Source: Betaproteobacteria bacterium (GTDB taxonomy: Bacteria; Pseudomonadota; Gammaproteobacteria; Burkholderiales; SG8-41). From it: a stretch of DNA of 64,000 nucleotides. Of the stretch, positions 17,914-49,516 are shown piece by piece. The first letter of the stretch is position 1. Each line of letters opens with the position of its first letter. Position numbers and translations under genes: made by a program. The notes below the pieces were generated by a model. The model did not search any database and was not told the origin of the DNA. It worked only from the letters and a program-made list of their open reading frames with translations. Location of the stretch: positions 4,030 to 68,029 of the forward strand of contig CANKUB010000011.1 of assembly GCA_947486575.1 (NCBI GenBank), in the 5' to 3' direction.

Positions 17914-19422
17914 TCAGGCGTAGAAATCGATTTGATTCGACGAGCGCAACGCAACGGGTGGCAGCGGCTGATTTGCCGCCAGGGTAGCGCTACCCTGGGC
18001 GTACGCGCGAGCGCGCGGCTGAGGTAAAGGCATGGGCGCTTGCTGTGCATCCTGGCCGTTACTGCCCACCGACGTGTGCCCCAGATGGATGCCGCCGCGC
18101 GCCAACTGCTCACGCAACTCCTGCAAGGCAGACCGAATGGCCGCACCGGCATCCGCATTGGCGACGGCAAAGGAAATGTCGGCGCGCTGATCAACCACTT
18201 GGATGCGAACGTCGACCGGCCCCAACTCGGCTGGGTTCAGTTGCAAAGCCGCGTTCGTGACGCCGTTGTTCAGCAACATTTGTACGCTGCCATTGAAAGC
18301 GGGTTTCCATTCGGCGCTGCCCAGTTGCGGCGTGATGTCCAGCGTAGGTATCCGGTTGTCGCTCGACGCGATCAGCCCCGGCGTGGTGGTTGCCAGCCCA
18401 AGGGTTTCACCCGCGCGATCCACCGCCGGCGGGCGCGCGAAGGAGCGGGCGTGCATGGAGAGTGCGGCGACCGCAGGCGTGATTTCCAACGCCTGCGCAT
18501 CGCCTTCCTCAGTCGCCGACATATCCTGGGGCGCGGCTGCGCGCTGGATTACTGGCGGCTTTATACCAATTCCAGTAAGCGCCTTTTCTGCGACAGGTAG
18601 CGCTACGCTGGCCGAGGCTGCTACACCGGCAGGCACGCTGTTGCGTGACGTATCTTCAGCGGGGCTACTTGCAGCGCTTGATTCTACTTCGGTAACATAT
18701 TGTTTATATTGCTTTTTTTCAATGCTTCTAGTCGGCGACACCTGTGCTTCTTTTAAGGATGGGGCGGTGATGACACCGGCCGCCGGGTTTACGCTGATGT
18801 TGCTTTCAGGGAGCGTCTGGTTCGCACTCACATCTATGCCTGGCGTGGGCGGCGTTTTGGCTGCCATGCGCTGAACATCGGCGTTAACGGCAGGTGCCGC
18901 CTGCCCTTGCGTCGTATCTTGCAGTGCTGACGCCGGTGTATCCGCCACAACAACAGGCAAGCCAGATGTAGCTGCGATTGCGTCGGACGGAACTGCTGTG
19001 TCAACAGCATCGGTGCTGCTGCGGATTGCCGATTCAGACGCAGCATCCAGAGCGCTATTGGCGACGGGCCGAACCTGCAGTTGTGCAAGCACCGACGCAA
19101 TAAGTGCCGTATCCACAGGTGCTTCGGCATCCTCACCGGGTGTGTCTGGTTCGCGTTCAGTATCGGCAGGTTTTGCGGTGCCATCAATGGGCGTCAGCAT
19201 GGGCGCGACACCGAATAGCCCCGCTTTATCATCAGGCGCGATCTCTTGCTTCAACGCCTGCTTCAACGTGCGGCCCTCCGCAGGCGGCTCTTGCGGCGCG
19301 GTGAGTTTACCCAGCACCAGTGCAAACGTGCCTGCGTCGGACGCAGGTTGGCCTTGACTGCTGGCAGGATTGTTTGTGGACGTTCCACGTGTCGCGTCGA
19401 GCGACTTAAGCGATGGGGTCAT
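17914..19422 (-). CDS. fliK: Flagellar hook-length control protein FliK
   Basis: Pro/Ala/Thr-rich disordered body and a C-terminal Flg_hook-type domain (LQLNPAELGPVDVRIQVVDQRADISFAVANADAGAAIRSALQELREQLARGGIHLG). The ATG at 19422 lies 1 nt after the fliJ stop. The longer ORF to 19620 would overlap fliJ. Confidence 0.85.
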   Translation of the reverse strand: MTPSLKSLDATRGTSTNNPASSQGQPASDAGTFALVLGKLTAPQEPPAEGRTLKQALKQEIAPDDKAGLFGVAPMLTPIDGTAKPADTEREPDTPGEDAEAPVDTALIASVLAQLQVRPVANSALDAASESAIRSSTDAVDTAVPSDAIAATSGLPVVVADTPASALQDTTQGQAAPAVNADVQRMAAKTPPTPGIDVSANQTLPESNISVNPAAGVITAPSLKEAQVSPTRSIEKKQYKQYVTEVESSAASSPAEDTSRNSVPAGVAASASVALPVAEKALTGIGIKPPVIQRAAAPQDMSATEEGDAQALEITPAVAALSMHARSFARPPAVDRAGETLGLATTTPGLIASSDNRIPTLDITPQLGSAEWKPAFNGSVQMLLNNGVTNAALQLNPAELGPVDVRIQVVDQRADISFAVANADAGAAIRSALQELREQLARGGIHLGHTSVGSNGQDAQQAPMPLPQPRARAYAQGSATLAANQPLPPVALRSSNQIDFYA

Positions 19423-19423
19423 G

Positions 19424-19873
19424 TCAGGTGTAACGCCGGTTATGCTGCACGCTGCGCGTGGCGAATTCGTCGGATTGTTTTTGCTCCTGCCGCTTCGCGT
19501 GCGCCTGGGCCACTGAAGCGCGCCGATTGCGCAACAGCTCCACGGCCTTGAGTTTGCGTAGCGACTCAAAGCAGTCCTTCTGCTGTAGCTCGACCGCCTT
19601 GCCCGCTTGCACAATGTCATGCTTCTGGCTGTGCAGCGCGAGCGACAATCGGCCCAGAAAGCGGTGGTAATTGCCCAGTGAGTCGGTACGAAAATGCGTT
19701 ACGCCGCGCAGCTTGTTGGCGTATTCGCCGCGATAATTGTCCAGTGTGGAAAACGTCGCTTCAGCCGACTGCAATCGCGCACGCGCACGCACCAGTTCCT
19801 GCTCCGCCGCCTGATGATTTTCAGCCGCACGCGCAATAACGATATCCAGCGCTGCCTGGTCAAGGGCACTCAT
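19424..19873 (-). CDS. fliJ: Flagellar export chaperone/stalk protein FliJ
   Basis: 149-aa coiled-coil protein between fliI and fliK, with a 4-nt overlap with fliI. Confidence 0.8.
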
Positions 19874-25843: not shown

Positions 25844-26220
25844 GATATTTTTTCACGTTGGCTGGCGTGTGGCGGCAGCGCGGGACGCTCCAGTCGGTGC
25901 AGCCACGCCAGAATTTCGGCCACCGCGAGATACAGGGTTTGCGGGATATGCTCATCCAGATCAACGCGCATCAGCAGCCGCACCAGATCCGCCGATTGAT
26001 GTACATAAATGCCCGCCTCGTTGGCACGACGGATGATTTCTTCGGCAATGGCGCCGTTGCCCCTGGCGACCACTTTGGGCGCGTACAGGCCACTATGGCC
26101 CCCATGGCCGTCCTGCCCGCCGTGATACGCCAGCGCCACGCATTGCGCAGGGCGTACTGCAACCGGAAGTGTCGGTCTAGGCATGTGCGGCCACGCGTAT
26201 CGAATGCGCTTCAAGGCCAT
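25840..26220 (-). CDS. FlhB C-terminal-domain-only protein (EscU/YscU/HrcU family, YlqH-like)
   Basis: VALAYHGG...APKVVARGNGAIAEEIIRRANEAGIYVHQSADLVRLLMRVDLDEHIPQTLYLAVAEILAWLHRLE aligns with the post-NPTH part of FlhB (compare flhB in this window). It has no TM region and no NPTH. An alternative start is ATG 26184. Confidence 0.75.
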   Translation of the reverse strand: MALKRIRYAWPHMPRPTLPVAVRPAQCVALAYHGGQDGHGGHSGLYAPKVVARGNGAIAEEIIRRANEAGIYVHQSADLVRLLMRVDLDEHIPQTLYLAVAEILAWLHRLERPALPPHASQREKIS

Positions 26221-27205
26221 GCGCGGACAGTGCCTGCATCAGTTGCGTACGTGCTTCGTCATTGCGCAATACCAGCGTACTGGCAGCGGGCGCCTGCAGA
26301 TGCACATCCAGCGCCTGACCGGTCAATAGCAGGCGGGCTTGCACCGCGCCCAGTACGGGCAAATCCAGATTGAGTCGTACCTGCCACGACCGTGGGGCGG
26401 CTGCACGGTCAGGCTCACCATCAGCATCATCGCCGATGTCGTCGGCACTCAGGGTGATTTCTGCTGCCTGGTGTGGCCACACAAAGCCGCGCCACGACAC
26501 GGTTTGCTGCGCATAGGTATCGAGCTGCTGCCGCACCAGCGGGGCCAACTGCGAAGGCATGATGTCGAGCGCTTCGCCCACAGCACTTTCATACCCGGCG
26601 GCGTACTCCGCGGCAAGCATCAGGGCCTGCGGTTCTTCCAGCAAATCCTCGAGTGCAAAACGACCGTTCAACCAACGCTGCAGGTGCGATTCATAAAACA
26701 AGCCCGAGCTGCGTACAGTCTGCTGCAACGCCTGCGCCAGAGCGGCGCTGGGCTGCGGTGAGGCGGTCAGGGGCGGCGTTGACATGTATTTCGTAACTAT
26801 TTGTTTATTAACAGGTTTTAGCAAATCCTGGATCAGTTGTGCAGAACCGCTTAACTTGACCTCAGGCGCGCTCACCGCGTGTTTCAGGGCTTCATCGAGG
26901 GTAACGATCAGCACATCGTCAGCAGCATGCATACCTGCCAGCCGTAATGCGAGATGCTGGGTTGACCCCGCGTGGGCAATTTCGACTGATTGCGTGCCAT
27001 CCGGTCGCACCTCCGCTATTCGCGCCGTAACGGCTTTGACATCACGCAACAGCATCAGCAAATCCTGTTGTTCACGCGCGCTAGTACCCGATCCGCGCAG
27101 GAGTTCTGCGAGGCTGATGCGCGTTACGCGCACAGGGGCGCGCACCGGCGCGCTGCGATCTGCGATGCGCCCGGGTGCGGGCGGCGTTGTGGACGGCACA
27201 AACAT
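26177..27205 (-). CDS. FliK-like protein (second hook-length-control-type C-terminal domain)
   Basis: The C-terminal block SWQVRLNLDLPVLGAVQARLLLTGQALDVHLQAPAASTLVLRNDEARTQLMQALSAHGLEAHSIRV resembles the Flg_hook domain. It lies downstream of fliT. The start is uncertain (ATG 27205 or 27238). Confidence 0.6.
   Translation of the reverse strand: MFVPSTTPPAPGRIADRSAPVRAPVRVTRISLAELLRGSGTSAREQQDLLMLLRDVKAVTARIAEVRPDGTQSVEIAHAGSTQHLALRLAGMHAADDVLIVTLDEALKHAVSAPEVKLSGSAQLIQDLLKPVNKQIVTKYMSTPPLTASPQPSAALAQALQQTVRSSGLFYESHLQRWLNGRFALEDLLEEPQALMLAAEYAAGYESAVGEALDIMPSQLAPLVRQQLDTYAQQTVSWRGFVWPHQAAEITLSADDIGDDADGEPDRAAAPRSWQVRLNLDLPVLGAVQARLLLTGQALDVHLQAPAASTLVLRNDEARTQLMQALSAHGLEAHSIRVAAHA
26792..26806 (-). 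repeat. Copy C of the exact 15-mer AAACAAATAGTTACG (inside the fliK-like CDS)
   Basis: The plus strand reads CGTAACTATTTGTTT. It is embedded in an AT-rich patch of about 45 nt encoding LKPVNKQIVTKYMST, in an otherwise GC-rich gene. Confidence 0.9.
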
Positions 27206-27218
27206 GGGCGTGGCTTGG

Positions 27219-27581
27219 TTACTGTGCGTACGCGCCATGCACGCGACGGCTATTGCCACGCCCGTGCAGAAAGCTCTCAAGTTTGAGCAGCCGCGGCTCC
27301 ACCAGATTGCGTATTTCGGCGTCGTGGGCCAGCACACAGCGTATGACGTGCATGCGCCGCACATTGCCCGATGCGCTGATCGCAGCGCGCTGACTCAATG
27401 CAGCTACTTTGCTGATGAGCTCCGCGCACGTCATCTCGGCTACCACCAGACCATCCCAGTCGGACGCGCGTGCGGCATTGAGCATCCGGGCGCTGGCCGC
27501 CGAAATCTGCTCATAGCAGCTCAGCACAACCTCTTCAGAAATCTCATCAACGTTGACTGGGTTCAATGGCATGCCACGCAT
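27219..27581 (-). CDS. fliT: Flagellar chaperone FliT
   Basis: About 118 aa, positioned after fliS. VLSCYEQISAASARMLNAARASDWDGLVVAEMTCAELISKV fits the FliT pattern. An alternative start is ATG 27572. Confidence 0.7.
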   Translation of the reverse strand: MRGMPLNPVNVDEISEEVVLSCYEQISAASARMLNAARASDWDGLVVAEMTCAELISKVAALSQRAAISASGNVRRMHVIRCVLAHDAEIRNLVEPRLLKLESFLHGRGNSRRVHGAYAQ

Positions 27582-29546: not shown

Positions 29547-30368
29547 TTAACGCAGCAGCGCCAACACTTGCTGTGGCAACTGGTTGGCTTGCGTCAGCAT
29601 GGCCATGCCGGCTTGTTGCAGAATCTGTCCGCGTGACAGGCTCGCCGTTTCCGTCGCAAAGTCTGCGTCGGTGATACGTCCGCGCGCCGCGGTTTGATTT
29701 TCAACCGACACCTGCAGGTTGGCAATCACCGAATCAAAGCGGTTTTGATCCGCACCATAGTTACCACGCTCTTGCGCAATGGCGATCAAGGCCGCGTCGA
29801 TGTTGTCCATCGCCGTGGTGGAGTTCGCCACAGCGGTGATGTCGCCGGCAGTGACGGCCGTCACGTTAGCATCACTGGACATATCAATGGTGGTGATGTC
29901 GATGGTGTCAGTCGAATTCGCGCCCACCTGAAAGGTCAGCGTACCCGCATCACTGCCGAGAATATTCTGGCCGTTGAATTTTGTATCGGTCAGTATGCGG
30001 GTAATTTCCGCACCCAATTGTTGATATTCCGCGTCCAGATTCAAGCGGTCGTCAGAGCTGTTAGTGACGTTGGCCGATTGCACCGCGAGTTCGCGCATGC
30101 GTTGCAGCGAATCCGTTACTTTGGCGAGCGAGCCTTCCGCCACGGCGGCGAGAGAAATCGCATCGTTTGAGTTGCGGATGCCGACGCTCATGCCGCGAAT
30201 CTGCGAAGTCATGCGATCGGAGATCGCCATGCCCGCAGCGTCATCCTTGGCGCTGTTGACACGCAAGCCCGAAGACAAACGTTGCATGGATGTACTGAGC
30301 GCCATCTGGGTAGCGCCGATATTGCGTTGGGCATTGAGTGAAGATATGTTGGTGTTGACTGAAAGCAT
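29547..30368 (-). CDS. fliC: Flagellin (short, 273 aa)
   Basis: MLSVNTNISSLNAQRNIGATQMALSTSMQRLSSGLRVNSAKDDAAGMAISDRMTSQIRG ... SLSRGQILQQAGMAMLTQANQLPQQVLALLR. Confidence 0.95.
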   Translation of the reverse strand: MLSVNTNISSLNAQRNIGATQMALSTSMQRLSSGLRVNSAKDDAAGMAISDRMTSQIRGMSVGIRNSNDAISLAAVAEGSLAKVTDSLQRMRELAVQSANVTNSSDDRLNLDAEYQQLGAEITRILTDTKFNGQNILGSDAGTLTFQVGANSTDTIDITTIDMSSDANVTAVTAGDITAVANSTTAMDNIDAALIAIAQERGNYGADQNRFDSVIANLQVSVENQTAARGRITDADFATETASLSRGQILQQAGMAMLTQANQLPQQVLALLR

Positions 30369-34151: not shown

Positions 34152-34913
34152 CTACCGTAATCGAAATGGCATCTGATACAGCCACACCTGCCGCCCATCA
34201 ACGCAATTCAGCACCCGCTGCGGTTTGAGCGTAGTTACTTCAAACTCAAGACTCGCCATCCACGCGCCATGCCGCAATTCGCGTGCCGCTTTTTCCGCAG
34301 CACGCGGCATGCTCTCCGGGCGCTGGAATAGATAAACCATATCGCAGGCGGACCAGTCAGCGGCCCAAATGTCCGCACGCCGGACGCGCGCAAATCGGCA
34401 TCGCCACGCGCAGGCGATGCGCAGCGGCCAGCTCCACTCCAGTCCCTCAATGCGGGCTGTTGGATATTCGCGATGCAGTTCGCGCAAGCCGTCGCCTAAA
34501 CCGCAGCCTGCATCGACAACCAGTGATTGTGCTGGCAACGGCGCCAACGCCGCCAAGCCGCGCAATGCACTCACAGGCGTAGGGAACAACGGCGCATCGC
34601 GCCACGTGTTGATCGGGTAAAGCAGCGCCAGCAGCGCCAGCGGCAAAAGCCACGCCACACCAGGTACGTTTGCCATGCCGCTCATCAGTAACGACAGCGG
34701 AAAGCCGGCCGCCATGAACACGCGCCGCCACGGCGTGCTGCCCCATAGGCTCATCACTGCGCCTGACGCACAGGCGATTAACAGTGTGAGCCAACCCACC
34801 ACGGCAAGCGACGACAGTGCCGTGAACACGAGCCATGCCGCACCCCACACCAGCAATGCGGGTAGCGGCCACTTCAGCGAGATGGATCGATTGCGCGTTG
34901 CGGTTGCCAACAT
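34152..34913 (-). CDS. Membrane-anchored class I SAM-dependent methyltransferase
   Basis: N-terminal TM helices (WPLPALLVWGAAWLVFTAL, VVGWLTLLIACASGAV...) followed by VVDAGCGLGDGLRELHREYP (SAM motif I). It is divergent from flhB. An internal ATG at 34913 is preferred over the ORF start at 35054, which would overlap flhB. Confidence 0.7.
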   Translation of the reverse strand: MLATATRNRSISLKWPLPALLVWGAAWLVFTALSSLAVVGWLTLLIACASGAVMSLWGSTPWRRVFMAAGFPLSLLMSGMANVPGVAWLLPLALLALLYPINTWRDAPLFPTPVSALRGLAALAPLPAQSLVVDAGCGLGDGLRELHREYPTARIEGLEWSWPLRIACAWRCRFARVRRADIWAADWSACDMVYLFQRPESMPRAAEKAARELRHGAWMASLEFEVTTLKPQRVLNCVDGRQVWLYQMPFRLR

Positions 34914-35039
34914 GATGTGCGGGACTTTGAACCAGTCGTCCTGCGCGTAATCACGGAACACCGCCCGAAAAAGCGGTTTCCTCCGGGGCTTGCGGCCCTC
35001 AAGTGCCATCAATAATGGCAGCTCTACGAGAGAGTGTGC

Positions 35040-36203
35040 ATGGCCAACGAACAAGATCAGGAACGCAATTTACCCGCAACCGCCAAGCGGCTGGAAGAAG
35101 TCCGCGAGGAAGGCCGCACCGCGCGCTCAACCGAGCTGGCCGGTGCTGCGGTGCTGGCGGTGCTGGCGGGTGCTACATGGATGGCCGGCCCGGCGTGGAT
35201 AGCACAGTGGCGGCTGTTTGTACGCACGGGCTTGCGCATTGAGCGCGCTGATGTACTGGATGGCGCCTCGCCTACCTTGCGGCTGGCCGAAATGGCGTGG
35301 CAGGCGGCAGGCGTATTCCTGCCCGTTGCGGGCATTGCAGCGATTGCCGCACTGGCCGGTACGCTGGCGGTAGGCGGTTGGCTATTCAGCCCCGGCGCAC
35401 TGTCATTTAAATTTGAGCGCATGAGTCCGCTCGCCACCTTCGAGCGCGTGTTTTCACTGCAAGGATTGGGCGAACTAGGCAAAACCCTGTTCAAGGTGCT
35501 GGTGCTGGGTGTGGCCGGTGCGTGTTCGGCGTGGTATTTCAAAGACGCGGCAGCGGGATTGGTACTCACGGCATTACCCGATGCCCTGCGCGGTACCGGC
35601 CATATTCTATTGGGCGCACTTTGCACGCTGGTGGCTGCAATGGTTTTGATCGCGGCCCTTGATGTGCCGTTCCAGTTGTGGCGTTTTCATTCGGGCCTGC
35701 GCATGAGTGCGGAGGAAGTGCGTCGCGAACAACGCGAGTCCGATGGTGACCCCCAAGTCAAGGGGCGTATCCGCGCCCAGCAACGCGAGATGGCACGTCG
35801 CCGCATGATGTCGGACGTGCCCAAGGCCGATGTCATCGTCACCAATCCTACGCACTACGCCGTCGCGCTTCAGTATCTCGAAGGCAAAATGGGTGCGCCA
35901 CGCGTACTCGCCAAAGGCGCTGATGACGTGGCACAGGCCATACGGGTGTTGGGCCTGCAACACGGCATACCGCTGCTGGAGGCGCCGCCGCTGGCACGCG
36001 CCCTGTATACGCATGGCGAAATTGGCGCCGAGATTCCGGCTGAACTGTACGGTGTGGTGGCACAAGTACTGGCCTGGGTATTCCAGTTGCGGCGTCATAT
36101 GCAGGGCGAAGCCGGATTCAGTGAACGACCCGAAGCGCCGCGCGTGCTGGATGTGCCTGCAGGTCTTGATCCGGCAACACCATTGGCAGGAGCCACCTCA
36201 TGA
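35040..36203 (+). CDS. flhB: Flagellar export switch protein FlhB
   Basis: MANEQDQERNLPATAKRLEEVREEGRTARSTEL, four TM segments, and the autocleavage site VTNPTHYAVALQY. Confidence 0.95.
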   Translation: MANEQDQERNLPATAKRLEEVREEGRTARSTELAGAAVLAVLAGATWMAGPAWIAQWRLFVRTGLRIERADVLDGASPTLRLAEMAWQAAGVFLPVAGIAAIAALAGTLAVGGWLFSPGALSFKFERMSPLATFERVFSLQGLGELGKTLFKVLVLGVAGACSAWYFKDAAAGLVLTALPDALRGTGHILLGALCTLVAAMVLIAALDVPFQLWRFHSGLRMSAEEVRREQRESDGDPQVKGRIRAQQREMARRRMMSDVPKADVIVTNPTHYAVALQYLEGKMGAPRVLAKGADDVAQAIRVLGLQHGIPLLEAPPLARALYTHGEIGAEIPAELYGVVAQVLAWVFQLRRHMQGEAGFSERPEAPRVLDVPAGLDPATPLAGATS

Positions 36204-40553: not shown

Positions 40554-41294
40554 ATGTATACCGAAAACGGGACGTTGGATCGCAAGCAGTGCATCGAGAA
40601 ATTCTCGCCGATGGTCAAGCGCATTGCGCACCATCTGATGGCGCGCCTGCCGGCCAGTGTGCAATTGGGCGACATGGTGCAGGCGGGACTGATCGGACTG
40701 GTGGATGCCGCAGGCCGCTATGAAAACAGTCAGGGCGTGCAATTTGAAACCTATGCCGCGCAACGCATACGCGGCGCCATGCTCGATGAGCTGCGCACCA
40801 ATGATTGGGTGCCACGCGGCGTGCGCAAGGCGCAACGCAAAATAGATACCGCGCAATCGCAACTGGAGCAAATGCTCGGCCGTGCGCCGCTCGAAGCCGA
40901 AATCGCCGAGCATATGGAAATCCCGCTCGACGACTACCGCGACATGCTGAACGACACCTACGGCTTTCAATTGGTGCACGTCGACGATTTTGATCATGGT
41001 GGGGACGGCGGCGACCGCGGTGAATTTATGGATCGCCATTGTCCACCCGATCACGCCGATCCGTTTGCCATGCTGTCCGATGCGCACTTCAAAAAAGCCT
41101 TGGTCGGGGCGATTGAATTGCTGCCCGAACGTGAAAAACTGCTGATGGGGCTGTATTACGAAAAAGAGTTAAATTTCAAAGAGATAGCCGCAGTACTCGG
41201 TGTAACAGAATCGCGCGTGTGCCAGTTGCACAGTCAGGCGGTGACGCGGCTGCGCGGCAAGCTTAAGGATTGGAAAGGGCAGTGGAATAATTGA
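40554..41294 (+). CDS. fliA: Flagellar sigma factor FliA (sigma-28)
   Basis: 246 aa with region 2 (GDMVQAGLIGLVDAAGRYE...FETYAAQRIRGAMLDELR) and region 4 (ELNFKEIAAVLGVTESRVCQLHSQAVTRLR). Confidence 0.95.
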   Translation: MYTENGTLDRKQCIEKFSPMVKRIAHHLMARLPASVQLGDMVQAGLIGLVDAAGRYENSQGVQFETYAAQRIRGAMLDELRTNDWVPRGVRKAQRKIDTAQSQLEQMLGRAPLEAEIAEHMEIPLDDYRDMLNDTYGFQLVHVDDFDHGGDGGDRGEFMDRHCPPDHADPFAMLSDAHFKKALVGAIELLPEREKLLMGLYYEKELNFKEIAAVLGVTESRVCQLHSQAVTRLRGKLKDWKGQWNN

Positions 41295-41329: not shown

Positions 41330-41589
41330 TCAGTCCGGCGCTTTCCGCTGCTGTAGCAAGCCGCCTATCGAACACCGGAACACCGCGAAATCGATGGATG
41401 AAACGGCACCAGCATTCAACCGCAATGCACTCGCCAGATGAATGGCATCGAGTCCACGCAATGTTGCCAATGCTTTGTCCTTGGAGACACGGCTTTGCAT
41501 TGCCGCCCCGTGCCCGCTTCGCGCACGTAATGCTTGACCAGCGCCGGGGTATCGAGATGCAGAATCAATGGCGGCCTTGTTTGACCCAC
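41330..41589 (-). pseudogene. Degraded PIN-domain (VapC-like) toxin gene
   Basis: The N-terminal PIN motif ILHLDTPALVKHYVREAGT is in one frame and the C-terminal motif LRGLDAIHLASALRL is in another. The total span of about 87 codons is too short for a PIN domain, so a frameshift plus an internal deletion is inferred. Confidence 0.5.
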
Positions 41590-41671
41590 ATGGAGAGCGA
41601 CACGCCTTACGATTCGATTCGCCCTGCGGCAGGCCGACGGGCTTGCCGCCATTCCAGCGGATGCCAAACAA

Positions 41672-41991: not shown

Positions 41992-42293
41992 TCAGATCAA
42001 TTCAGTTGCGTAACGTTGGTGTCGTAGCCCTCCTTTCCGGCAATCAGAATCGGCTTGCAGTTGCATGAGTGGCTCGTAAATCTTCTTTCTGAATGGCATC
42101 TGATAGAACTCCTGCGAGATCGTCTTGTGGAAACGCTCGCAGACGCCGTCGGTTTGCGGTTGACGCATTGGCTCTTGGTATGCTCGACCCTCTCCTTTGT
42201 GGTCCGGCTTGCGCCGGAATCATGTACTAGTTTCTCCAATATGGGCCCGCTTCGAATGTTTTGAGGCTGCTGCCCAAAATGGAGGAGCATCAA
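41992..42293 (-). mobile_element. Frameshifted C-terminal fragment of a DDE (rve/integrase-core) transposase, IS481-like
   Basis: The minus strand encodes ...RVEHTKSQ / (frameshift) / PQTDGVCERFHKTISQEFYQMPFRKKIYEPLMQLQAD, the hallmark PQTNGxxERF region. The N-terminal two thirds of the transposase are absent. A 9-bp inverted repeat GATCTGACA/TGTCAGATC lies at 41959-41999. Confidence 0.55.
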
Positions 42294-42318: not shown

Positions 42319-45234
42319 TTACATATTCAAATACTGTATCTGTGTCGTCGTGAACTGCGATATCTGCGTCGTCGTCAGTGCTCCCACTTGCGGGGCCGTC
42401 AGCGCGCCCACCTGGCTGGTCGTCAACTGTGCTACGGGCAGTGCCGTCACCTGGGTGGTGGATAGTGCTGCTATTTCCAAGGCTGAGATCGACTGGATTT
42501 GCGCCGTGCTCAAGGCACCCAGCACTGTGGTGGTCAACCCCGACACCTGCGCGGTGGTCAATGCCCCAATCTGCGCGGTGGTTAAAGTGGCTCCCAAGCC
42601 GCTGATCTGCGTGTAAATCATAGCCGCGACTTGGCTGGTTGTGATGCCTGTGACCTGCGTGGTAGATAAGGCACCCAACTGCGTGGTCGTGAGTGAGCCG
42701 ATTTCCTTGGTCGATATGGCCTGCAACTGCACCGTGCTCAAGCCGCCCAGCGTGGTGGTGCTCAGTCCCGACGCTTGCGCGGTAGTCAATGCGCCTATCT
42801 GCGAGGTGGTGAAGGCCGTACCCAGTGCGCCGATCTGGGCCGTTGTCAGCGAGGCAATTTCGCTCGTCGAGATGGCCTGCAACTGGGCTGTGCTCAAGGT
42901 TCCCAGCACCGTGGTTGTCAGACCAGCGGCTTGCGCTGTGGTCAATGCGCCAATCTGCGTGGTGGTTAAACTGGCTCCCAGGCCGCTGATCTGCGTGTAA
43001 ATCATGGCCGCGACCTGGCTGGTTGTGATGCCTGTGACCTGCGTGGTCGAAAATCCGCCCAACTGCGTGGTGGTCAGTGCGGCAATTTCCTTGGTCGAGA
43101 TCGCCTGTAACTGTGCGGTGCTCAAGCCCCCCAGCGTGGTGGTGCTCAGTCCCGATGCCTGCGCGGTGGTCAACGCGCCGATCTGCGCGGTGGTGAAGGC
43201 GGTACCCAATGCGCCAACCTGGGCCGTTGTCAGTGAGGAGATATCACTGGCTGAGATCGCCTGCAATTGAGCTGTGCTCAAGGTTCCCAGCACCGTGGTT
43301 GTCAGTCCTGAGGATTGCGCTGCGATCAGCGCATCCACTTGCGTAGTGGTGAATTTTGCCGCCAGCGTTCCAACCTGGGCGGTCGTCAGTGCCGCCACCT
43401 GACTGGTCGTGATGCCTGTGACCTGGGTGGTCGATAAGGCGCCCAACTGGGTGGTCGTCAGTGAGCCGATTTCCTTGGTGGATATCGACTGTAATTGTGC
43501 CGTGCTCAAGCTGCCCAGCGTGGTGGTGCTCAATCCTGAAGCTTGCGCCGTGGTCAGTGCACCAATCTGGCTGGTGGTGAAAGTGGTTCCCAACGCGCCG
43601 ACCTGAGCTGTCGTCAGCGAGGCAATTTCGCTCGTCGAGATGGCCTGCAACTGGGCCGTGCTCAGGGTACCCAACACGGTAGTGGTCAGTCCTGAAGCCT
43701 GCGCGGTGGTTAATGCGCCAATCTGTGTGGTGGTCAAATTGGCTGCCAATGAACTCACCTGGGCGGTCGTCAGCGCTGCTACCTGGCTGGTTGTGATGCC
43801 AGTAGCCTGTGTGGTCGATAAGGCGCCCAACTGCGTGGTCGTGAGTGAGCCGATTTCCTTGGTCGATATGGCCTGCAACTGGGCCGTGCTCAAGCTGCCC
43901 AGCGTGGTGGTGCTCAATCCTGAAGCTTGCGCCGTCGTCAGTGCGCCGATCTGCGCGGTGGTGAAAGCGGTAGTCAATGCGCCGACTTGAGCCGTTGTCA
44001 GTGCAGCGATCTCATTCGTCGAGATGGCTTGCAACTGCGCTGTAGTCAGAGTGCCTATCACCGTGGTCGTCAGTCCAGCGGCTTGCGCTGTGGTCAATGC
44101 GCCAATCTGTGTGGTGGTCAAATTGGCCGCCAATGAACTCACCTGGGCGGTCGTGAGTGCTGCCACCTGGCTGGTCGTGATTCCGGTGACCTGCGTGGTC
44201 GATAAGGCGCCCAACTGCGTGGTCGTCAGTGAACCGATTTCCTTGGTCGATATGGCCTGCAATTGCGCCGTGCTCAAGCTGCCCAGCGTGGTGGTGCTCA
44301 ATCCTGAAGCCTGCGCCGTGGTCAGTGCGCCAATTTGCGCGGTGGTGAAGGCGGTAGTCAATGCACCGACTTGAGCCGTTGTCAGTGCAGCGATTTCCTT
44401 GGTGGAGATCGCCTGCAATTGCGCCGTGCTCAGGGTTCCCAGCACCGTGGTTGTCAGTCCAGCGGCTTGCGCTGTGGTCAATGCGCCAATCTGCGTGGTG
44501 GTTAAATTAGCTGCGAGGGATCCAACCTGAGCGGCTGTGAGTGCTGCCACCTGACTGGTCGTGATGCCTGTGACCTGCGTGGTCGATAAGGCGCCCAACT
44601 GTGTGGTCGTCAGTGAGCCGATTTCCTTGGTGGATATCGACTGTAATTGTGCCGTGCTCAAGCTGCCCAGCGTGGTGGTGCTCAATCCTGAAGCTTGCGC
44701 CGTCGTCAGTGCGCCGATCTGCGCGGTGGTGAAGGCGGTAGTCAATGCACCGACTTGAGCCGTTGTCAGTGCAGCGATTTCCTTGGTGGAGATCGCCTGC
44801 AATTGCGCCGTGCTCAGGGCACCCAGCACCGTGGTTGTCAGTCCAGCGGCTTGTGCTGTGGTCAATGCGCCAATCTGTGTGGTGGTTAAATTGGCTGCCA
44901 GTGTCCCGGCCTGGCTGACCGTCAGCGCGGATACCTGACTCGTAGTCAGGGCGGCAATCTGGCTGGTTGACAAGGCCGAAACCTGTGCCGTTGTCAGAAC
45001 CGCTATGTCTGCTTTGCTGATCGCATCCAGCTGCGAGTTACTGAACAGGGCAAGTGCAGCCGTGCTGATCTGGACAATGTTTACGGTAGAGATTGCCCCG
45101 ATCTGGGCCGTCGTCAATTGCTGTGCCTGAGTCGTACTCAGGGCCTGAATATCGCTAGTGGATAGTGACGATATCTGCTTGGTGCTCAGAGCCGCGATTT
45201 GCGTCGGCGACAGGGACGATATGATGGAAGTCAT
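42319..45234 (-). CDS. 971-aa Thr/Ala/Ser/Gln-rich octapeptide-repeat protein of no family I can name
   Basis: The ATG at 45234 has AGGAG 9 nt upstream. The whole protein is a run of about 120 octads of the type L-[ST]-T-[AT]-Q-[IVL]-x-[AGS]. I see no signal peptide, TM segment, Cys or Trp, and K/E occur almost only in the ISTKEI octad. It ends inside repeat-like sequence (TTTQIQYLNM). Confidence 0.8.
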   Translation of the reverse strand: MTSIISSLSPTQIAALSTKQISSLSTSDIQALSTTQAQQLTTAQIGAISTVNIVQISTAALALFSNSQLDAISKADIAVLTTAQVSALSTSQIAALTTSQVSALTVSQAGTLAANLTTTQIGALTTAQAAGLTTTVLGALSTAQLQAISTKEIAALTTAQVGALTTAFTTAQIGALTTAQASGLSTTTLGSLSTAQLQSISTKEIGSLTTTQLGALSTTQVTGITTSQVAALTAAQVGSLAANLTTTQIGALTTAQAAGLTTTVLGTLSTAQLQAISTKEIAALTTAQVGALTTAFTTAQIGALTTAQASGLSTTTLGSLSTAQLQAISTKEIGSLTTTQLGALSTTQVTGITTSQVAALTTAQVSSLAANLTTTQIGALTTAQAAGLTTTVIGTLTTAQLQAISTNEIAALTTAQVGALTTAFTTAQIGALTTAQASGLSTTTLGSLSTAQLQAISTKEIGSLTTTQLGALSTTQATGITTSQVAALTTAQVSSLAANLTTTQIGALTTAQASGLTTTVLGTLSTAQLQAISTSEIASLTTAQVGALGTTFTTSQIGALTTAQASGLSTTTLGSLSTAQLQSISTKEIGSLTTTQLGALSTTQVTGITTSQVAALTTAQVGTLAAKFTTTQVDALIAAQSSGLTTTVLGTLSTAQLQAISASDISSLTTAQVGALGTAFTTAQIGALTTAQASGLSTTTLGGLSTAQLQAISTKEIAALTTTQLGGFSTTQVTGITTSQVAAMIYTQISGLGASLTTTQIGALTTAQAAGLTTTVLGTLSTAQLQAISTSEIASLTTAQIGALGTAFTTSQIGALTTAQASGLSTTTLGGLSTVQLQAISTKEIGSLTTTQLGALSTTQVTGITTSQVAAMIYTQISGLGATLTTAQIGALTTAQVSGLTTTVLGALSTAQIQSISALEIAALSTTQVTALPVAQLTTSQVGALTAPQVGALTTTQISQFTTTQIQYLNM
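42598..44901 (-). repeat. Six tandem, near-identical 384-bp (128-aa) higher-order units inside the repeat-protein gene, plus a partial seventh extending to about 42440
   Basis: Unit boundaries were counted from the protein (units start at aa 112, 240, 368, 496, 624, 752). Antisense ORFs recur at 384-bp and 768/1152-bp offsets (43640/44024; 42641/43409/44561). Confidence 0.9.
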
Positions 45235-45337
45235 GAGTCATTGCTCCTATATTAATTGTCTATGGTCGGTTGCTTCACCGCCAATCGCGCCACCATTTTG
45301 GAAGTCGCGACACAACGCTCCGTTGAGCCTACACACA

Positions 45338-45364
45338 TCAACGGCGCTGCTTTTAAATTCTTGA
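45338..45364 (-). promoter_or_regulatory. Putative FliA-type promoter of the repeat-protein gene
   Basis: The minus strand reads TCAAGAAT-N11-GCCGTTGA, about 100 nt upstream of the ATG. The -35 octamer is identical to those upstream of motA and the HDOD gene. Confidence 0.5.
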
Positions 45365-45667
45365 GGCTCACGTAAATCGTCGCCAGGATTCTGGACGCGA
45401 ACGGCTGCGGGGGCGTATGCAACGACAATCGGCTCAAGCGACTGGCCTTGCAGAACGTCCTGCGCAAGAAACAACTAAGGAAGCACTAAAGAAACGACTG
45501 ACCGAGTCGCTACTGAAGAATGCTGCGCAGAAAACCTGCGTACCTCATCAATACGGCGGGTGCTGGCGCGGGACAGGCCATGCAAAGCGTCAAAGCAAAG
45601 GGGCAAAGATGCGTCAGTTAGAGGCCCCCGTTCGGATCGCAGTTTTTGCGCCCGACTGATTCAGCCC

Positions 45668-48436
45668 TTATTGACGTATTGCGTAAAGCGCCATGTGGGC
45701 GTGCTGCTGGTCGGACAGGGCAAGATCGATCATTTCAAAACCGCTGGCGCGCACAAGCTTGATGATTCGCTCGCGGCTGAAATTGTGACAGCGTTCCATT
45801 TGTGACCAATACGGGTTGGCGTTGGCAGCATCCATGGCTTTCCAGCTTGAGGACATGAGGTCAGGCATGCCTATGACCATCAGGCCACCGGGTCGCAGCA
45901 CTTGCGCCGCTTTGCGTAAAGCTTCCAGCGGATACGGAATATGGTCCAGAACATCCATCAGGGACAGCACATCGACCACGATTTTGAATTGCAGGGTTAT
46001 AAAATCGTGCTGCATCGCATTGAAACCCAATGCCTGAACGTTCTTAACCGCATCAAGTCGTGTGTCCAGTCCGACAGCGGCAAAGCCATAATCTGCGGCG
46101 GTCATGACTAATGCACCGTCGCCGCATCCGGCATCCACCCAGACCGGTCGGCTGGGCTGGTTGATAAAGTTCGGGTAGCCACCAAGGTGAGTGACTGCTT
46201 TTCCCACCACCTTAGTCCATGTCGCCCGCCTCGCACCGTAAATACCATTGGCGTCCGCAATCGATCTTGCACTGGCGTCGCGGAATACTTCGGTCAAACC
46301 GGCTGGCGTCCAGTAATGACGTTTATATACGTGATCGCACGACGCGCACCGCATCCATTCGGCGGAAAGCGGCAAAGGTGTGTGCCACAAATCCTGTTTA
46401 GAACAATCTGCGAAACCTAACGTCGCGCTGGCACCGTCGCACAGGGGGCAGGCTGCGAAGGCGGCCTGCCATTCTGGCGCAGGTTCCGCAATGATGGCAT
46501 CGGCCTTCGGTGCGTCAGCCGGGGGCCGCACTACCGACCCGCAGTCGGGTACGTCGATAGGTCCATGTGGTGCGCCGCTGTCATGCCGCTGCACCATTAA
46601 CTCGATCGCCGTTTCAAAATTCTGGGTAAACCGCAAGGTATCGAACAGCGGTGCTGTTGTGCGGTTCGCCGCAATTTTATTTCGCAGCGCCAGTCGATAG
46701 TCTGTTTCAGTGCCCATGCGTTTTGCGATACGCACCATATCGTCATGGTTTGCGCCAACCAGCTCCGGCAAATCAATCGCATTCAGCAGACTTTCGCTGA
46801 CGCGCGAGGGAAAATGCCCGCCTCGGCAGGTAATTACAGGAATGCCTGCCCATAGCGCATCCGACGTAGTGGTATGTCCATTGCAGGTCAGCGTATCAAG
46901 GACCGCGTCGGCAAGCTGCAAGCGCGCCAGATGTGCCTGCGGGGCGGCAAACGGTGCGAAGATCAGTCTATCCGGCGCAATTCCGGCTAGCTGTGCGTAA
47001 CGCGACAGATTCTCAACAGCAGCCGGGCTTTGACCCAACATCCAAAGTACACTGTTTGGCACCTCATTCAAAATGCGCATCCAGACGGCAAAACTGGTGC
47101 GATCAACCTTGTAAGACTGGTTGAAGGCACCGAATATGAACTTGTCGTCCGGGAGTCCGTGCAAGGCGCGAGTACCGGGATACGCTGCAAGAAAGCGCCT
47201 GCTGTCGTTGCACTGGTAGGTGTGGGGCAGGCGACAGAATGCCTCGGTGTAAAACGGCGCGCTGCTGTCGGGTGTAACGAACCGGTCCGACACGATGTAG
47301 TCAATGTCAGCGTTCGCCGCACTGCCGGGGTAACCCAGGTAAGCCACTTGCAGCGGCGCGGGCCGGTAGGCCATGATGCCCGGACGACCGCCACCCGTGT
47401 AAAGCTTCAAATCAAACAGAATGTCCAGTTGATCTTCCGCGATGCGGGCGGCAGCCTGCCTGTCGCTCAGCGAGTGGATTTCAACGTGATGTTCGACAGC
47501 ATTGAGAAAACGTTGCCGGTAGTCGGAAACATCGAAACTGCTGTAGTCATACGCAAAGACTTCGAAGCGATCCCGATCATGGGATTCAAAAATGCCCGCC
47601 ATCAGATACATGGTTGCATGGTTGCGAAAATCGCATGACACGTAGCCTACACGAATACGTTTTCCCTGGGGCCGGACAGCTTTGGCCTTATGCGGTTCAT
47701 TACGTGGTTCAACTTGCGGCACCATACGTTTTACATAATCGCGGGTCACGCCCAGGTTGTAGGCTTCGTCCATGCACCAAGTCAGGTGCGTCAACGGATA
47801 TTCATGGGGTGCGTCAAAGTTGCCGCGCTCGTACCACGCGCCGATTTTTTGCTGCAGCGATTCAACCCATTCCCACTCGCAGGTGAAGCGTGCCGGCACC
47901 AAGGCAGCCCCGACCAGCGCAGGATCGTCGGGCGATAGCGTGACAATCTTTTTGAAAGCAGCTGAAGATTCTTCATACAAATCAACACTTTGCAGTAGCA
48001 ATGCCGCACGCGAGAGAAGCTGGGGATTGCTACTGACCAGCAGTTGGCGTCGGGCAAATTCAAGCGCCTCACTGTGGCGGTTGGCATTGAAAAGCGTGGT
48101 AATCAGCGCGTCTAATATCACCTCGCTATCCGAGTCTTCACCGAGGGCGGTTTGCAGGCATCTGACGGCTTCATCTGTGTTGCGCTCGGCCGCCAGCAAT
48201 ACTCCCGCCGCCAGCCAGTTGCGTGCGCCGCCACCTTTTGCGCCAGCTTCCTGGAATGCCTCAATGGCTTCGGCCAGACGCCCGGACTGCCGCAATGCCT
48301 CAGCTTTCAGTGCCAGCACCGCAGGGTGCTTGGGCTGTTGCGCCAGCAATTTATCGAGTTTGGGCAAGGCCTTGGCGGCGTACCCGTTGTTAACCTGCTT
48401 AAGCAGCGTAGCCAACTGCTCTGCCTGGATTATCAT
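45668..48436 (-). CDS. Tri-domain enzyme: N-terminal TPR + GT41 (O-GlcNAc-transferase-like) glycosyltransferase + C-terminal class I SAM methyltransferase
   Basis: 922 aa. The TPR-like first ~200 aa are followed by a central region with RIRVGYVSCDFRNHATMYL, LQVAYLGYPGSAANADIDYIV, FGAFNQSYKV and CNGHTTTSDALWAGIPVITCRGGHFPSRVSESLL, which closely resembles the OGT catalytic C-terminus (CNGHTTGMDVLWAGTPMVT). The last ~270 aa have a Cys4 motif and VWVDAGCGDGALVM...LRPGGLMVIGMP. Confidence 0.85.
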   Translation of the reverse strand: MIIQAEQLATLLKQVNNGYAAKALPKLDKLLAQQPKHPAVLALKAEALRQSGRLAEAIEAFQEAGAKGGGARNWLAAGVLLAAERNTDEAVRCLQTALGEDSDSEVILDALITTLFNANRHSEALEFARRQLLVSSNPQLLSRAALLLQSVDLYEESSAAFKKIVTLSPDDPALVGAALVPARFTCEWEWVESLQQKIGAWYERGNFDAPHEYPLTHLTWCMDEAYNLGVTRDYVKRMVPQVEPRNEPHKAKAVRPQGKRIRVGYVSCDFRNHATMYLMAGIFESHDRDRFEVFAYDYSSFDVSDYRQRFLNAVEHHVEIHSLSDRQAAARIAEDQLDILFDLKLYTGGGRPGIMAYRPAPLQVAYLGYPGSAANADIDYIVSDRFVTPDSSAPFYTEAFCRLPHTYQCNDSRRFLAAYPGTRALHGLPDDKFIFGAFNQSYKVDRTSFAVWMRILNEVPNSVLWMLGQSPAAVENLSRYAQLAGIAPDRLIFAPFAAPQAHLARLQLADAVLDTLTCNGHTTTSDALWAGIPVITCRGGHFPSRVSESLLNAIDLPELVGANHDDMVRIAKRMGTETDYRLALRNKIAANRTTAPLFDTLRFTQNFETAIELMVQRHDSGAPHGPIDVPDCGSVVRPPADAPKADAIIAEPAPEWQAAFAACPLCDGASATLGFADCSKQDLWHTPLPLSAEWMRCASCDHVYKRHYWTPAGLTEVFRDASARSIADANGIYGARRATWTKVVGKAVTHLGGYPNFINQPSRPVWVDAGCGDGALVMTAADYGFAAVGLDTRLDAVKNVQALGFNAMQHDFITLQFKIVVDVLSLMDVLDHIPYPLEALRKAAQVLRPGGLMVIGMPDLMSSSWKAMDAANANPYWSQMERCHNFSRERIIKLVRASGFEMIDLALSDQQHAHMALYAIRQ

Positions 48437-48822: not shown

Positions 48823-49212
48823 CTAAATCCCCAAATACCCATTCGCGCGGTATAACGTATTCGCGCGATGATCACCGCCGCGCAGCAGACGCAGGCGGCT
48901 TTCGCAGGCGGTGCGGTGCATGGCCAGCATGGTGGCATTGATGGCGTTAAGGCGTTGCGCACGACGGGCCAGCGCGGGCACTTCCGGCTCAATTGCGCTG
49001 GCGCTGTCGGTAGCATAGTGGGTGCCGCCGCACAGCACGTGCAGATCGTTGACGAGCACCTGCTTTGCTGCAGCGATGGCTTCCAGCACTTCGACTTGCG
49101 GATTGCCCAATGCTTGCCGTTCATGCTCCAGCAGCGCGATAAAGGTGGTGAGCGCCTGGTGCTTAGGCCCCGGTTTCAAAGCAGCGGTCGCCTGCGGTGT
49201 GAGGTCATGCAT
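48823..49212 (-). CDS. flgN: Flagellar chaperone FlgN
   Basis: 129 aa following flgM with an 8-nt overlap: LTTFIALLEHERQALGNPQVEVLEAIAAAKQVLVNDL. Confidence 0.8.
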   Translation of the reverse strand: MHDLTPQATAALKPGPKHQALTTFIALLEHERQALGNPQVEVLEAIAAAKQVLVNDLHVLCGGTHYATDSASAIEPEVPALARRAQRLNAINATMLAMHRTACESRLRLLRGGDHRANTLYRANGYLGI

Positions 49213-49516
49213 ACTGGCGACCCATCAATTCGCCGATGCTCTGGATCACTTTGTCGGCGACGGCTTCTGCATTAACCTTGTAGCTGCCGTCGCGTATGGC
49301 GGCCTTGATTTGCTCTACACGCGTGGCATCGAATTCGGGTTCGCGGCTCAGTTTGGTCTCCAGTTGATGTATTTGCGTGGATAAATCCGATAGCCGGATT
49401 GATCCGCTGCCCTCGTCCGCAGTGGCCGTGCCGGCTTTGGCGGAAGCGCTGGATGCCGCAGGAGTGGCCTGCGTTAACGGGGCATTAATTTTATATAAGT
49501 TATTGATTACATTCAT
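49205..49516 (-). CDS. flgM: Anti-sigma-28 factor FlgM
   Basis: 103 aa with C-terminal DATRVEQIKAAIRDGSYKVNAEAVADKVI. Confidence 0.9.
   Translation of the reverse strand: MNVINNLYKINAPLTQATPAASSASAKAGTATADEGSGSIRLSDLSTQIHQLETKLSREPEFDATRVEQIKAAIRDGSYKVNAEAVADKVIQSIGELMGRQYA

Follow-up and report, generated by a model that had tools for sequence, protein, structure and literature searches.

The stretch of DNA analysed here, hereafter the window, comprises 64,000 nucleotides of contig CANKUB010000011.1 (positions 4,030 to 68,029 of the forward strand; assembly GCA_947486575.1, Betaproteobacteria bacterium) and encodes a 971-residue protein built from ALTTAQ repeats, beside a gene for an O-GlcNAc transferase (OGT)-like enzyme of glycosyltransferase family 41 (GT41). 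We propose that the repeat protein may be a product of the late flagellar regulon that is O-glycosylated by the partner enzyme and probably exported by the flagellar apparatus, a reading to which we give a probability of about 0.5. The cytoplasmic enzyme, which contains tetratricopeptide repeats (TPR), would glycosylate exposed Thr and Ser residues of a rod formed by the repeat protein, its fused methyltransferase would modify the sugar or the protein, and the flagellar type III apparatus would export the glycosylated rod. The genetic linkage behind the first step is conserved and its chemistry presumed; export is the least certain step.

The protein is a member of PF20080 (ALTTAQ_rpt), which it matches in 24 stretches with 501.6 bits against a cut-off of 26.4 (Pfam, E = 1.8e-154). 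Since this match is accompanied by orthologues, a Shine-Dalgarno-like AGGAG and a third-codon-position bias, the reading frame is considered genuine. Thr (24%), Ala (16.5%), Leu (13%), Ser (11%) and Gln (10.6%) dominate the composition; Thr and Ser together make up 35%, Arg, His, Cys and Trp are absent, and charged residues are nearly so, leaving the protein almost uncharged. No signal peptide was found by inspection. Weak Pfam co-matches to CAAP1, LRR_EndoS, DUF4351 and RRM_2, of which no stretch passes on its own, were taken as artefacts of composition and repeats.

Against a background of ~0.08-0.14, residue autocorrelation rises to 0.345 for a lag of 8 residues, to 0.45-0.46 for lags of 52 and 76, and to 0.785 for a lag of 128. 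Together with the unit boundaries, these values uphold the hierarchy of 8, 52+76 and 128 residues that had been claimed in a preliminary description made from the sequence alone. Its six super-units with a partial seventh are likewise present, the six filling exactly the interval given in Table 1. Complete units begin at residues 112, 240, 368, 496, 624 and 752, and the partial seventh at residue 880. Each unit comprises four residues (LAAN) and six octads, followed by four residues (LTTA) and nine octads, and the 52+76 split thus arises from two 4-residue stutters per unit. The octad consensus is L-[ST]-T-x-[QE]-[LIV]-x-[AGS]. Position 1 is L/I/F/M in 90/90 octads and position 6 is L/I/V/A in 89/90, as expected from the hydrophobic character previously assigned to both; S/T occupies position 2 in 87/90, T position 3 in 85/90, and Q/E position 5 in 77/90. 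Two finer details of that description were also confirmed. Units 5 and 6 share a junction, both closing with AAMIYTQISGLGA, and an ISTKEI-type octad occurs in both halves, although in units 3-6 the copy in the first half has diverged to ISTNEI, ISTSEI and ISASDI.

Structure prediction, which had been suggested as a check, gave confident short α-helices. For residues 1-111 with a 35-homologue alignment, AlphaFold2 reached a predicted local distance difference test score (pLDDT) of 94.9 and a predicted template modelling score (pTM) of 0.83, and all five models exceeded a pLDDT of 92 with the same pattern. Residues 1-367, modelled with no alignment (pLDDT 78), showed a strict alternation of five helical and three non-helical residues, with helices of 8-10 residues at the 4-residue stutters. 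In these models, each octad holds one helix of 5-6 residues spanning positions 3-7, and no strand is present. Because the helices span positions 3-7, position 2 is the N-cap and position 5 the capping-box partner: the S/T at position 2 directly precedes the predicted helix, and the Q/E at position 5 completes the capping box. Positions 1 and 6 of each octad would pack into a continuous hydrophobic core, so that ~119 octads wind into a long, uncharged, Thr/Ser-covered α-helical screw, in which the stutters behind the 52+76 and 128-residue periods would give longer helices.

Among solved structures, sequence similarity was found only to 9ZEM (HeliScrew4), which matches the protein at E = 1.5e-10 and the orthologue profile at E = 4.4e-20 over 101 ungapped residues in octad register. 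HeliScrew is a designed α-helical screw with an 8-residue period, an N-cap Ser/Thr and a hydrophobic core (bioRxiv 10.64898/2025.12.04.691947). The ALTTAQ models share these features and the single short helix per repeat. The designed protein, however, is 120 residues long, starts each helix with Pro and has a charged surface, whereas the natural one has 971 residues, Thr in place of that Pro, near-zero charge and regular 4-residue stutters. The HeliScrew authors list only one natural example in the PDB (7QLR), and the ALTTAQ family is unmentioned (bioRxiv 10.64898/2025.12.04.691947). Taken together, the models and the 9ZEM match strongly support the prediction that the array is the body of an α-helical-screw ALTTAQ protein.

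The preliminary description had instead speculated on a solenoid or fibre with outward Thr ladders and likened the array to ice-nucleation proteins. Such a β-solenoid, ice-nucleation- or antifreeze-like, would suit the octapeptide hierarchy, the high Thr content, the uncharged surface and a source that seems to be an environmental metagenome. It nevertheless appears very improbable, since zero strand is predicted, S/T-x-x-Q/E is the pattern of a helix capping box, the threonines occupy the N-cap and the first residue positions of the helices, and the nearest structure is a crystallised, designed α-helical screw. Ice-nucleation proteins are also built on an octapeptide-based hierarchical repeat, but their periods are 16 and 48 in a β-solenoid, whereas the ALTTAQ protein has periods of 8, 52+76 and 128 and an all-α prediction. 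No ice-nucleation family is among the Pfam matches, we found no relationship to these proteins in sequence or predicted fold, and the orthologues occur in soil Pseudomonas and Paraburkholderia.

The partner enzyme consists of TPR (residues ~10-175), a GT41 O-GlcNAc-transferase-like domain (~118-619) and a class I S-adenosylmethionine (SAM)-dependent methyltransferase domain (~760-904). It matches PF13844 at 313.5 bits, together with Methyltransf_23 and TPR families, and aligns with human OGT at E = 2e-80 and with XcOGT at E = 4e-65. Its conserved FNQxYK (including the lysine), GNH and CNGHTT..D motifs align identically with human OGT, and we take them to be the sugar-donor-binding residues of OGT. 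The catalytic domain with these motifs and the N-terminal TPR place the enzyme in GT41. On the other hand, the HMW1C-type N-glycosyltransferase model NF049992 scores only 18.2 bits against a cut-off of 1000, and no TpsB-like gene was found among the window open reading frames (ORFs) scanned.

A genome scan with the partner enzyme yielded 12 close relatives (56-68% identity), and in 12/12 of these loci an ALTTAQ orthologue adjoins the GT41-methyltransferase gene on the same strand. From this conserved adjacency we infer that the two proteins are enzyme and substrate. The repeat gene comes first in the orthologous loci and second in the window. The intergenic gap in the orthologous loci is mostly 139-316 bp and has no sigma-28-type motif, so the repeat and enzyme genes are probably co-transcribed there. 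A metagenome scan with the profile of the N-terminal region found 78 loci encoding ALTTAQ proteins of 500 to >5000 residues, of which 60 are non-redundant with at least 3 kb of flank. A GT41 gene lies within 6 kb in 21/60 of these, a flagellar gene within 9 kb in 16, and one or the other in 33. Family 2 glycosyltransferase genes stand beside the pair in two of the orthologous loci (L005, 5642-6496; L002, 495-1256 (-), the latter recognised by sequence motif only), an arrangement that fits a multi-sugar glycan. An N-x-T sequon (AN[LIF]TT) was also noticed at super-unit starts (residues 114, 242, 370 and 498), and likewise in L001 and in L005, which has seven regularly spaced copies; L008 has a single match. 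Since the partner enzyme resembles an O-transferase and not an N-transferase, this sequon may be structural in role.

Throughout its length, the window is a region of flagellar and chemotaxis genes, with fliC, fliD, fliS, fliF to fliR, flhC, motAB, flhBAFG-fliA, flgA to flgL, cheR, cheD and cheB, and the minus-strand order flgA-flgM-flgN-GT41-ALTTAQ runs convergent with fliA. The site ~100 nt upstream of the ALTTAQ start codon (Table 1) is of the sigma-28 (FliA) type, TAAAG-N14/15-GCCGATAA, and lies at a suitable distance. The motif T(A/C)AAG-N14-G(C/T)CG(A/T)T is found ~100 nt upstream in 9/9 orthologues with readable upstream DNA, including that of Pseudomonas izuensis, where 10-kb flanks show no flagellar gene. 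When a matrix built from these nine orthologue sites, with the window excluded, was run over the 64 kb, the site before the ALTTAQ gene ranked first at 26.4 bits, the flgM promoter second and a site preceding fliS third; the highest score in 20 shuffles was 17.9 bits. The strict pattern has two matches in the window against 0.16 expected, and the core matrix also scores the upstream regions of motA and fliS. Among metagenomic genes with intact 5' ends, 17/42 score at least 14 bits within 300 nt, compared with 0.7% of 840 control segments, and the distance from motif to start codon is mostly 83-100 nt. The ALTTAQ gene is therefore predicted to be a late flagellar gene under a sigma-28-type promoter. 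The flgM promoter may also drive the GT41 gene by read-through. The first promoter candidate, CAAG-N13-GCCGAT at 45428-45450 (-), was rejected because its spacer is a base too short and the number of matches with one mismatch allowed was at chance level (8 versus 6.55 expected); it forms a weaker sigma-28-like site ~85 nt upstream of the main one, and L001 and L005 also have two tandem motifs.

Since the protein has no signal peptide, no dedicated secretion genes lie nearby, and the gene would be expressed when the export gate takes late substrates, export by the flagellar type III apparatus is probable. The scanned ORFs of the window include no gene for type I, type V or two-partner secretion, and the protein has no Sec/Tat signal or RTX motif. 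Readings as a type I secretion substrate, as an HMW1C N-glycosyltransferase system and as a serine-rich repeat protein were considered and rejected. A glycosylated ALTTAQ protein that remains in the cell, or is released by some other general route, seems unlikely. Other ALTTAQ proteins carry calpain, RTX, Ig-like or pilin-type N-termini, which imply other routes for them, and a recognisable export signal is missing here; the lack of alternative secretion signals and genes just described, the coincidence of sigma-28-type expression with the export of late substrates, and an N-terminus conserved across subfamilies argue the other way.

Several observations weigh against our proposal. No flagellar export signal is recognisable by sequence, and the 10-kb flanks of L001, L005 and L007 yielded no flagellar gene; L007 lies among housekeeping genes. 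Three non-orthologous ALTTAQ proteins (P0011, P0024 and P0009) have neither GT41 nor flagellar neighbours, and the GT41 partner is thus a trait of the subfamily and not general to the ALTTAQ repeat. The fold, for its part, would rest on prediction and on sequence similarity to one designed protein: when both models were compared with the PDB by Foldseek, no solved structure resembling them was found, the only matches being weak ones to α-solenoids (mesothelin, the best match at TM 0.4, and armadillo; TM at most 0.46 overall), and the PDB copy searched returned neither 9ZEM nor 7QLR. Our literature search found no paper mentioning the ALTTAQ repeat. Finally, the enzyme could act on flagellin instead of the repeat protein or as well, as TPR glycosyltransferases beside fliC do elsewhere, for example FlmQ of B. 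cenocepacia (PMC4462625).

This last point leads to the main rival explanation, in which the GT41-methyltransferase is a flagellin glycosyltransferase and the ALTTAQ protein is a separate late flagellar product, such as a cytoplasmic or polar scaffold or spacer, but not the substrate. The window does encode a 273-residue flagellin, and fliC or fliD lies near the pair in four genome loci (L003, L006, L008 and L009). We nevertheless regard this explanation as improbable. The enzyme adjoins the ALTTAQ gene in all 12 genomes and is near fliC in only those four, the P. izuensis pair (neighbours uvrB, an aminotransferase and a permease) is distant from any flagellar gene, and a nearly uncharged protein so rich in Thr and Ser is a typical target of O-glycosylation. 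The flagellin gene (29547-30368, (-)) is a separate gene whose sigma-28-type promoter has a 15-nt spacer; its product has N- and C-terminal helical regions and no large variable domain. The 971-residue protein, by contrast, contains no Flagellin_N, Flagellin_C or rod/hook terminal domains (Pfam).

Modules that combine a repeat substrate with a dedicated glycosyltransferase are already known, as is PF20080 in Pfam. In Gram-positive bacteria, serine-rich repeat glycoproteins such as Fap1 and GspB carry Ser/Thr-rich repeats that are O-GlcNAcylated by GtfA/GtfB in the cytoplasm before export. Features of these systems that were not seen here are GT4 enzymes, accessory SecA2/SecY2, disordered dipeptide repeats and a cell-wall anchor, but the systems resemble our proposal in having a Ser/Thr-rich repeat protein with a dedicated and, here, putatively glycosylating cytoplasmic enzyme. 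The flagellin glycosylation system of Caulobacter reportedly uses the TPR glycosyltransferase FlmG. In flagellin glycosylation systems, the glycosyltransferase gene lies in flagellar loci and the substrate receives its glycans in the cytoplasm, ahead of its export by the flagellum (FlmQ, PMC4462625); the conserved neighbour here, however, is a giant repeat protein that lacks the terminal domains of flagellin. In the HMW1 and HMW1C pair of H. influenzae, a large secreted protein modified at many sites is likewise encoded beside a dedicated cytoplasmic GT41 enzyme, but HMW1C is an N-glycosyltransferase with no TPR that works with a two-partner secretion pore (PMC3012730), whereas the window enzyme is closer to the O-GlcNAc transferases and has TPR and a fused methyltransferase. 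In the literature searched, we found nothing on a module combining GT41/OGT, flagella, FliA and a repeat protein, and no description of the ALTTAQ fold, its late-gene control, its OGT-like partner or the extent of the giant-protein family.

Carriers of the orthologous pair include P. izuensis, P. japonica, another Pseudomonas, Paraburkholderia panacisoli, a Burkholderia, Noviherbaspirillum aridicola and several gammaproteobacterial metagenome-assembled genomes (MAGs), among them MAGs of Steroidobacteraceae. The ALTTAQ neighbours are considered true orthologues because they share a conserved N-terminus, MTSIVTSMSTAQIAALTTKQIA...LSTAAIALFNSSQL (identities of 46-61% between the window protein and nine orthologues, with a mean of 66% per column), and several also a C-terminal motif. 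The latter, xQIxYL(N/T)(L/M/V), is present in L003, L007, L008, L011 and L024; L001, L005 and L006 end otherwise. Their central super-period is 128, 136, 168, 184 or 198 residues, and their length ranges from 255 residues (L003) to >1900 residues (L010). The minimal orthologue (L003, 9065-9841) lies between fliD and the GT41 gene and retains the conserved N-terminus, few octads and the end ...SQIQYLTV. A protein search with the N-terminal profile returned short ALTTAQ fragments and no orthologues, since the word prefilter saturates on repeat words.

PF20080 itself is a family with no described function, of which the 971-residue protein is a direct member. Clustering at 50% identity gives the family 1498 representatives at E <= 1e-3, many of them 2000-4500 residues long, and the present subfamily is defined by its conserved N- and C-termini, GT41 partner and sigma-28-type promoter. 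As a tentative and somewhat doubtful extension, giant ALTTAQ proteins with their OGT-like partners could represent an unrecognised class of late flagellar cargo, namely Thr-rich helical-screw rods that receive their O-glycans in the cytoplasm before the flagellar type III apparatus carries them out of the cell. A distinct subfamily of ~2443 residues was observed directly downstream of fliC (L026, L029, L030, L038, L060, L062, L064 and L089), with a non-repeat N-terminus, MATINNLSTGFQ..., and the C-terminus ...TQLYGLVTAARN; L026, the one member scanned, otherwise contains ALTTAQ repeats only (83 stretches, Pfam). ALTTAQ proteins of >4500-5000 residues, some cut by contig ends, occur in L045, L047, L050 and L078.

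With this analysis, the ALTTAQ repeat gains a predicted fold, and an α-helical screw recently presented as nearly absent from nature would build ~1500 cluster representatives, some of >4000 residues. If true, a fold known so far from protein design and one PDB entry (per the HeliScrew preprint) would for the first time be seen to occur abundantly in nature. One subfamily is tied to late flagellar gene expression and to a bacterial OGT homologue. As bacterial OGT homologues have few known substrates, the pair offers a concrete, testable enzyme-substrate combination in culturable Pseudomonas and Paraburkholderia, and the proposal, if true, would mean a flagellum-dependent secreted glyco-fibre across Beta- and Gammaproteobacteria.

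At the DNA level, the preliminary description had seen six near-identical 384-bp units and deduced recent expansion or ongoing homogenisation, with unstable copy number. Near identity did not hold: Tandem Repeats Finder (TRF) gives 6.4 copies at 84% matches, and pairwise unit identity is 75.8-93.0% in DNA and 78-97% in protein. Third codon positions hold 662/955 of the pairwise inter-unit differences, and synonymous divergence (dS) between units is 0.24-1.16 with a ratio of nonsynonymous to synonymous divergence (dN/dS) of 0.05-0.2. These values speak against a recent expansion and strongly support purifying selection on the units, which are old at the DNA level and kept alike by selection on the protein. 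Homogenisation can be retained in part. Units resemble each other within the protein (85-97%) more than the best orthologue unit (59-70%), and the 128-residue super-period is also found in L001, L005 and L008, which amounts to concerted evolution of the array on a long time scale. At the DNA level, the units are mosaics. The longest exact repeats in the array measure 101, 100 and 83 bp, none exceeding 101 bp, and identical tracts exceed the lengths that permutation predicts for this number of differences (p <= 0.005).

We surveyed copy number at 10 places in other public assemblies of the same population that encode an identical neighbouring enzyme. The exact 971-residue protein is present on three contigs. 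A second MAG (L101) also has six units, with single-nucleotide polymorphisms (SNPs) of its own and 10 mismatches in 4.8 kb; 8/10 of these fall in a 35-bp patch (43771-43805), where most L101 bases equal those of other units at that position, and the patch looks like a short gene-conversion tract. In L098 and nine similar places, the window sequence lacks exactly 1152 bp at the 101-bp tract with 0 mismatches, leaving three units, and L100 shows two 384-bp steps, a four-unit version. The shorter versions are joined exactly at the 83-101-bp identical tracts, and seven other contigs or scaffolds stop inside the array or have a 100-N gap there. Either alleles of three, four and six units coexist or short-read assemblers drop loops at identical tracts; because the short versions match the long one perfectly, collapse is favoured. 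Changes in array length would come from unequal recombination between units and from short gene conversions among them.

The instability of copy number and the risk in assembly were thus correctly anticipated, but they stem from 83-101-bp identical tracts in diverged units and not from near identity. The array is a worked example of how identical tracts of 80-100 bp in a diverged array make short-read assemblies differ in gene length. The six-unit array could itself be a short-read artefact, the true number being different or a mix of lengths, since the window derives from a metagenome-assembled genome and assemblies with the identical neighbour protein show three or four units or break inside the array. 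We consider this quite unlikely, as six units recur in the second MAG with its own SNPs, the exact protein is found on three contigs, no exact repeat exceeds 101 bp, and the short versions, which have 0 mismatches to the six-unit sequence apart from the deletion, resemble loop collapses of it. The hierarchy, fold and gene context are independent of copy number in any case.

Table 1. Positions in the window of the ALTTAQ-repeat gene, its subdivisions, and associated genes, promoters and identical tracts.
Feature	Position	Strand	Basis or remark
ALTTAQ-repeat coding sequence, 971 residues, stop codon included	42319..45234	(-)	ORF, Pfam, codon-position pattern, orthologues in 12 genomes
Conserved N-terminal region, residues 1-111 (MTSIISSLSPTQIAALSTKQI...), octad-built	44902..45234	(-)	orthologue alignment, AlphaFold2
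Six 384-bp / 128-residue super-units	42598..44901	(-)	TRF, autocorrelation, unit alignment
Super-unit U1	44518-44901	(-)	
Super-unit U2	44134-44517	(-)	
Super-unit U3	43750-44133	(-)	
Super-unit U4	43366-43749	(-)	
Super-unit U5	42982-43365	(-)	
Super-unit U6	42598-42981	(-)	
Partial seventh unit (first 52-residue half) and C-terminal tail ...TTQIQYLNM	42322..42597	(-)	
Shine-Dalgarno-like AGGAG, 9 nt 5' of ATG	45244..45248	(-)	read from sequence
Sigma-28 (FliA)-type promoter, TCAAG-N14-GCCGTTGA, ~100 nt upstream of ATG	45336..45365	(-)	orthologue-built matrix
Partner gene, 922 residues, TPR-GT41-methyltransferase	45668..48436	(-)	Pfam and human OGT similarity
flgN	48823-49212	(-)	directly upstream of partner gene
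flgM	49205-49516	(-)	upstream of flgN, same strand
flgM sigma-28-type promoter, TAAAGTTT-N11-GCCGAAAA	49589..49618	(-)	matrix scan
fliA (sigma-28 gene), convergent with ALTTAQ gene	40554..41294	(+)	NCBIfam NF005413, 298.7 bits
101-bp tract, junction of three-unit version	44603..44703		identical to 43451-43551, offset 1152 bp
100-bp tract	44336..44435		identical to 44720-44819, offset 384 bp
83-bp tract	43883-43965		identical to 44651-44733

Between the repeat gene and fliA lie two apparent gene remnants. One (41992-42168, (-)) resembles the C-terminus of an integrase-core (rve_3) transposase at E = 0.0028, under the Pfam cut-off, and the other (41330-41671, (-)) carries a PIN-toxin-like LDAIHLASAL motif with no Pfam match. 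They suggest that mobile DNA is present where the two-gene module was inserted. A 300-residue ORF between motB and flhB (34152-35054, (-)) has no Pfam match above threshold (weak methyltransferase match, E = 0.008). The same flagellar region contains two genes with a C-terminal domain of the FliK hook-length-control type, at 17914-19620 (-) and 26177-27364 (-).

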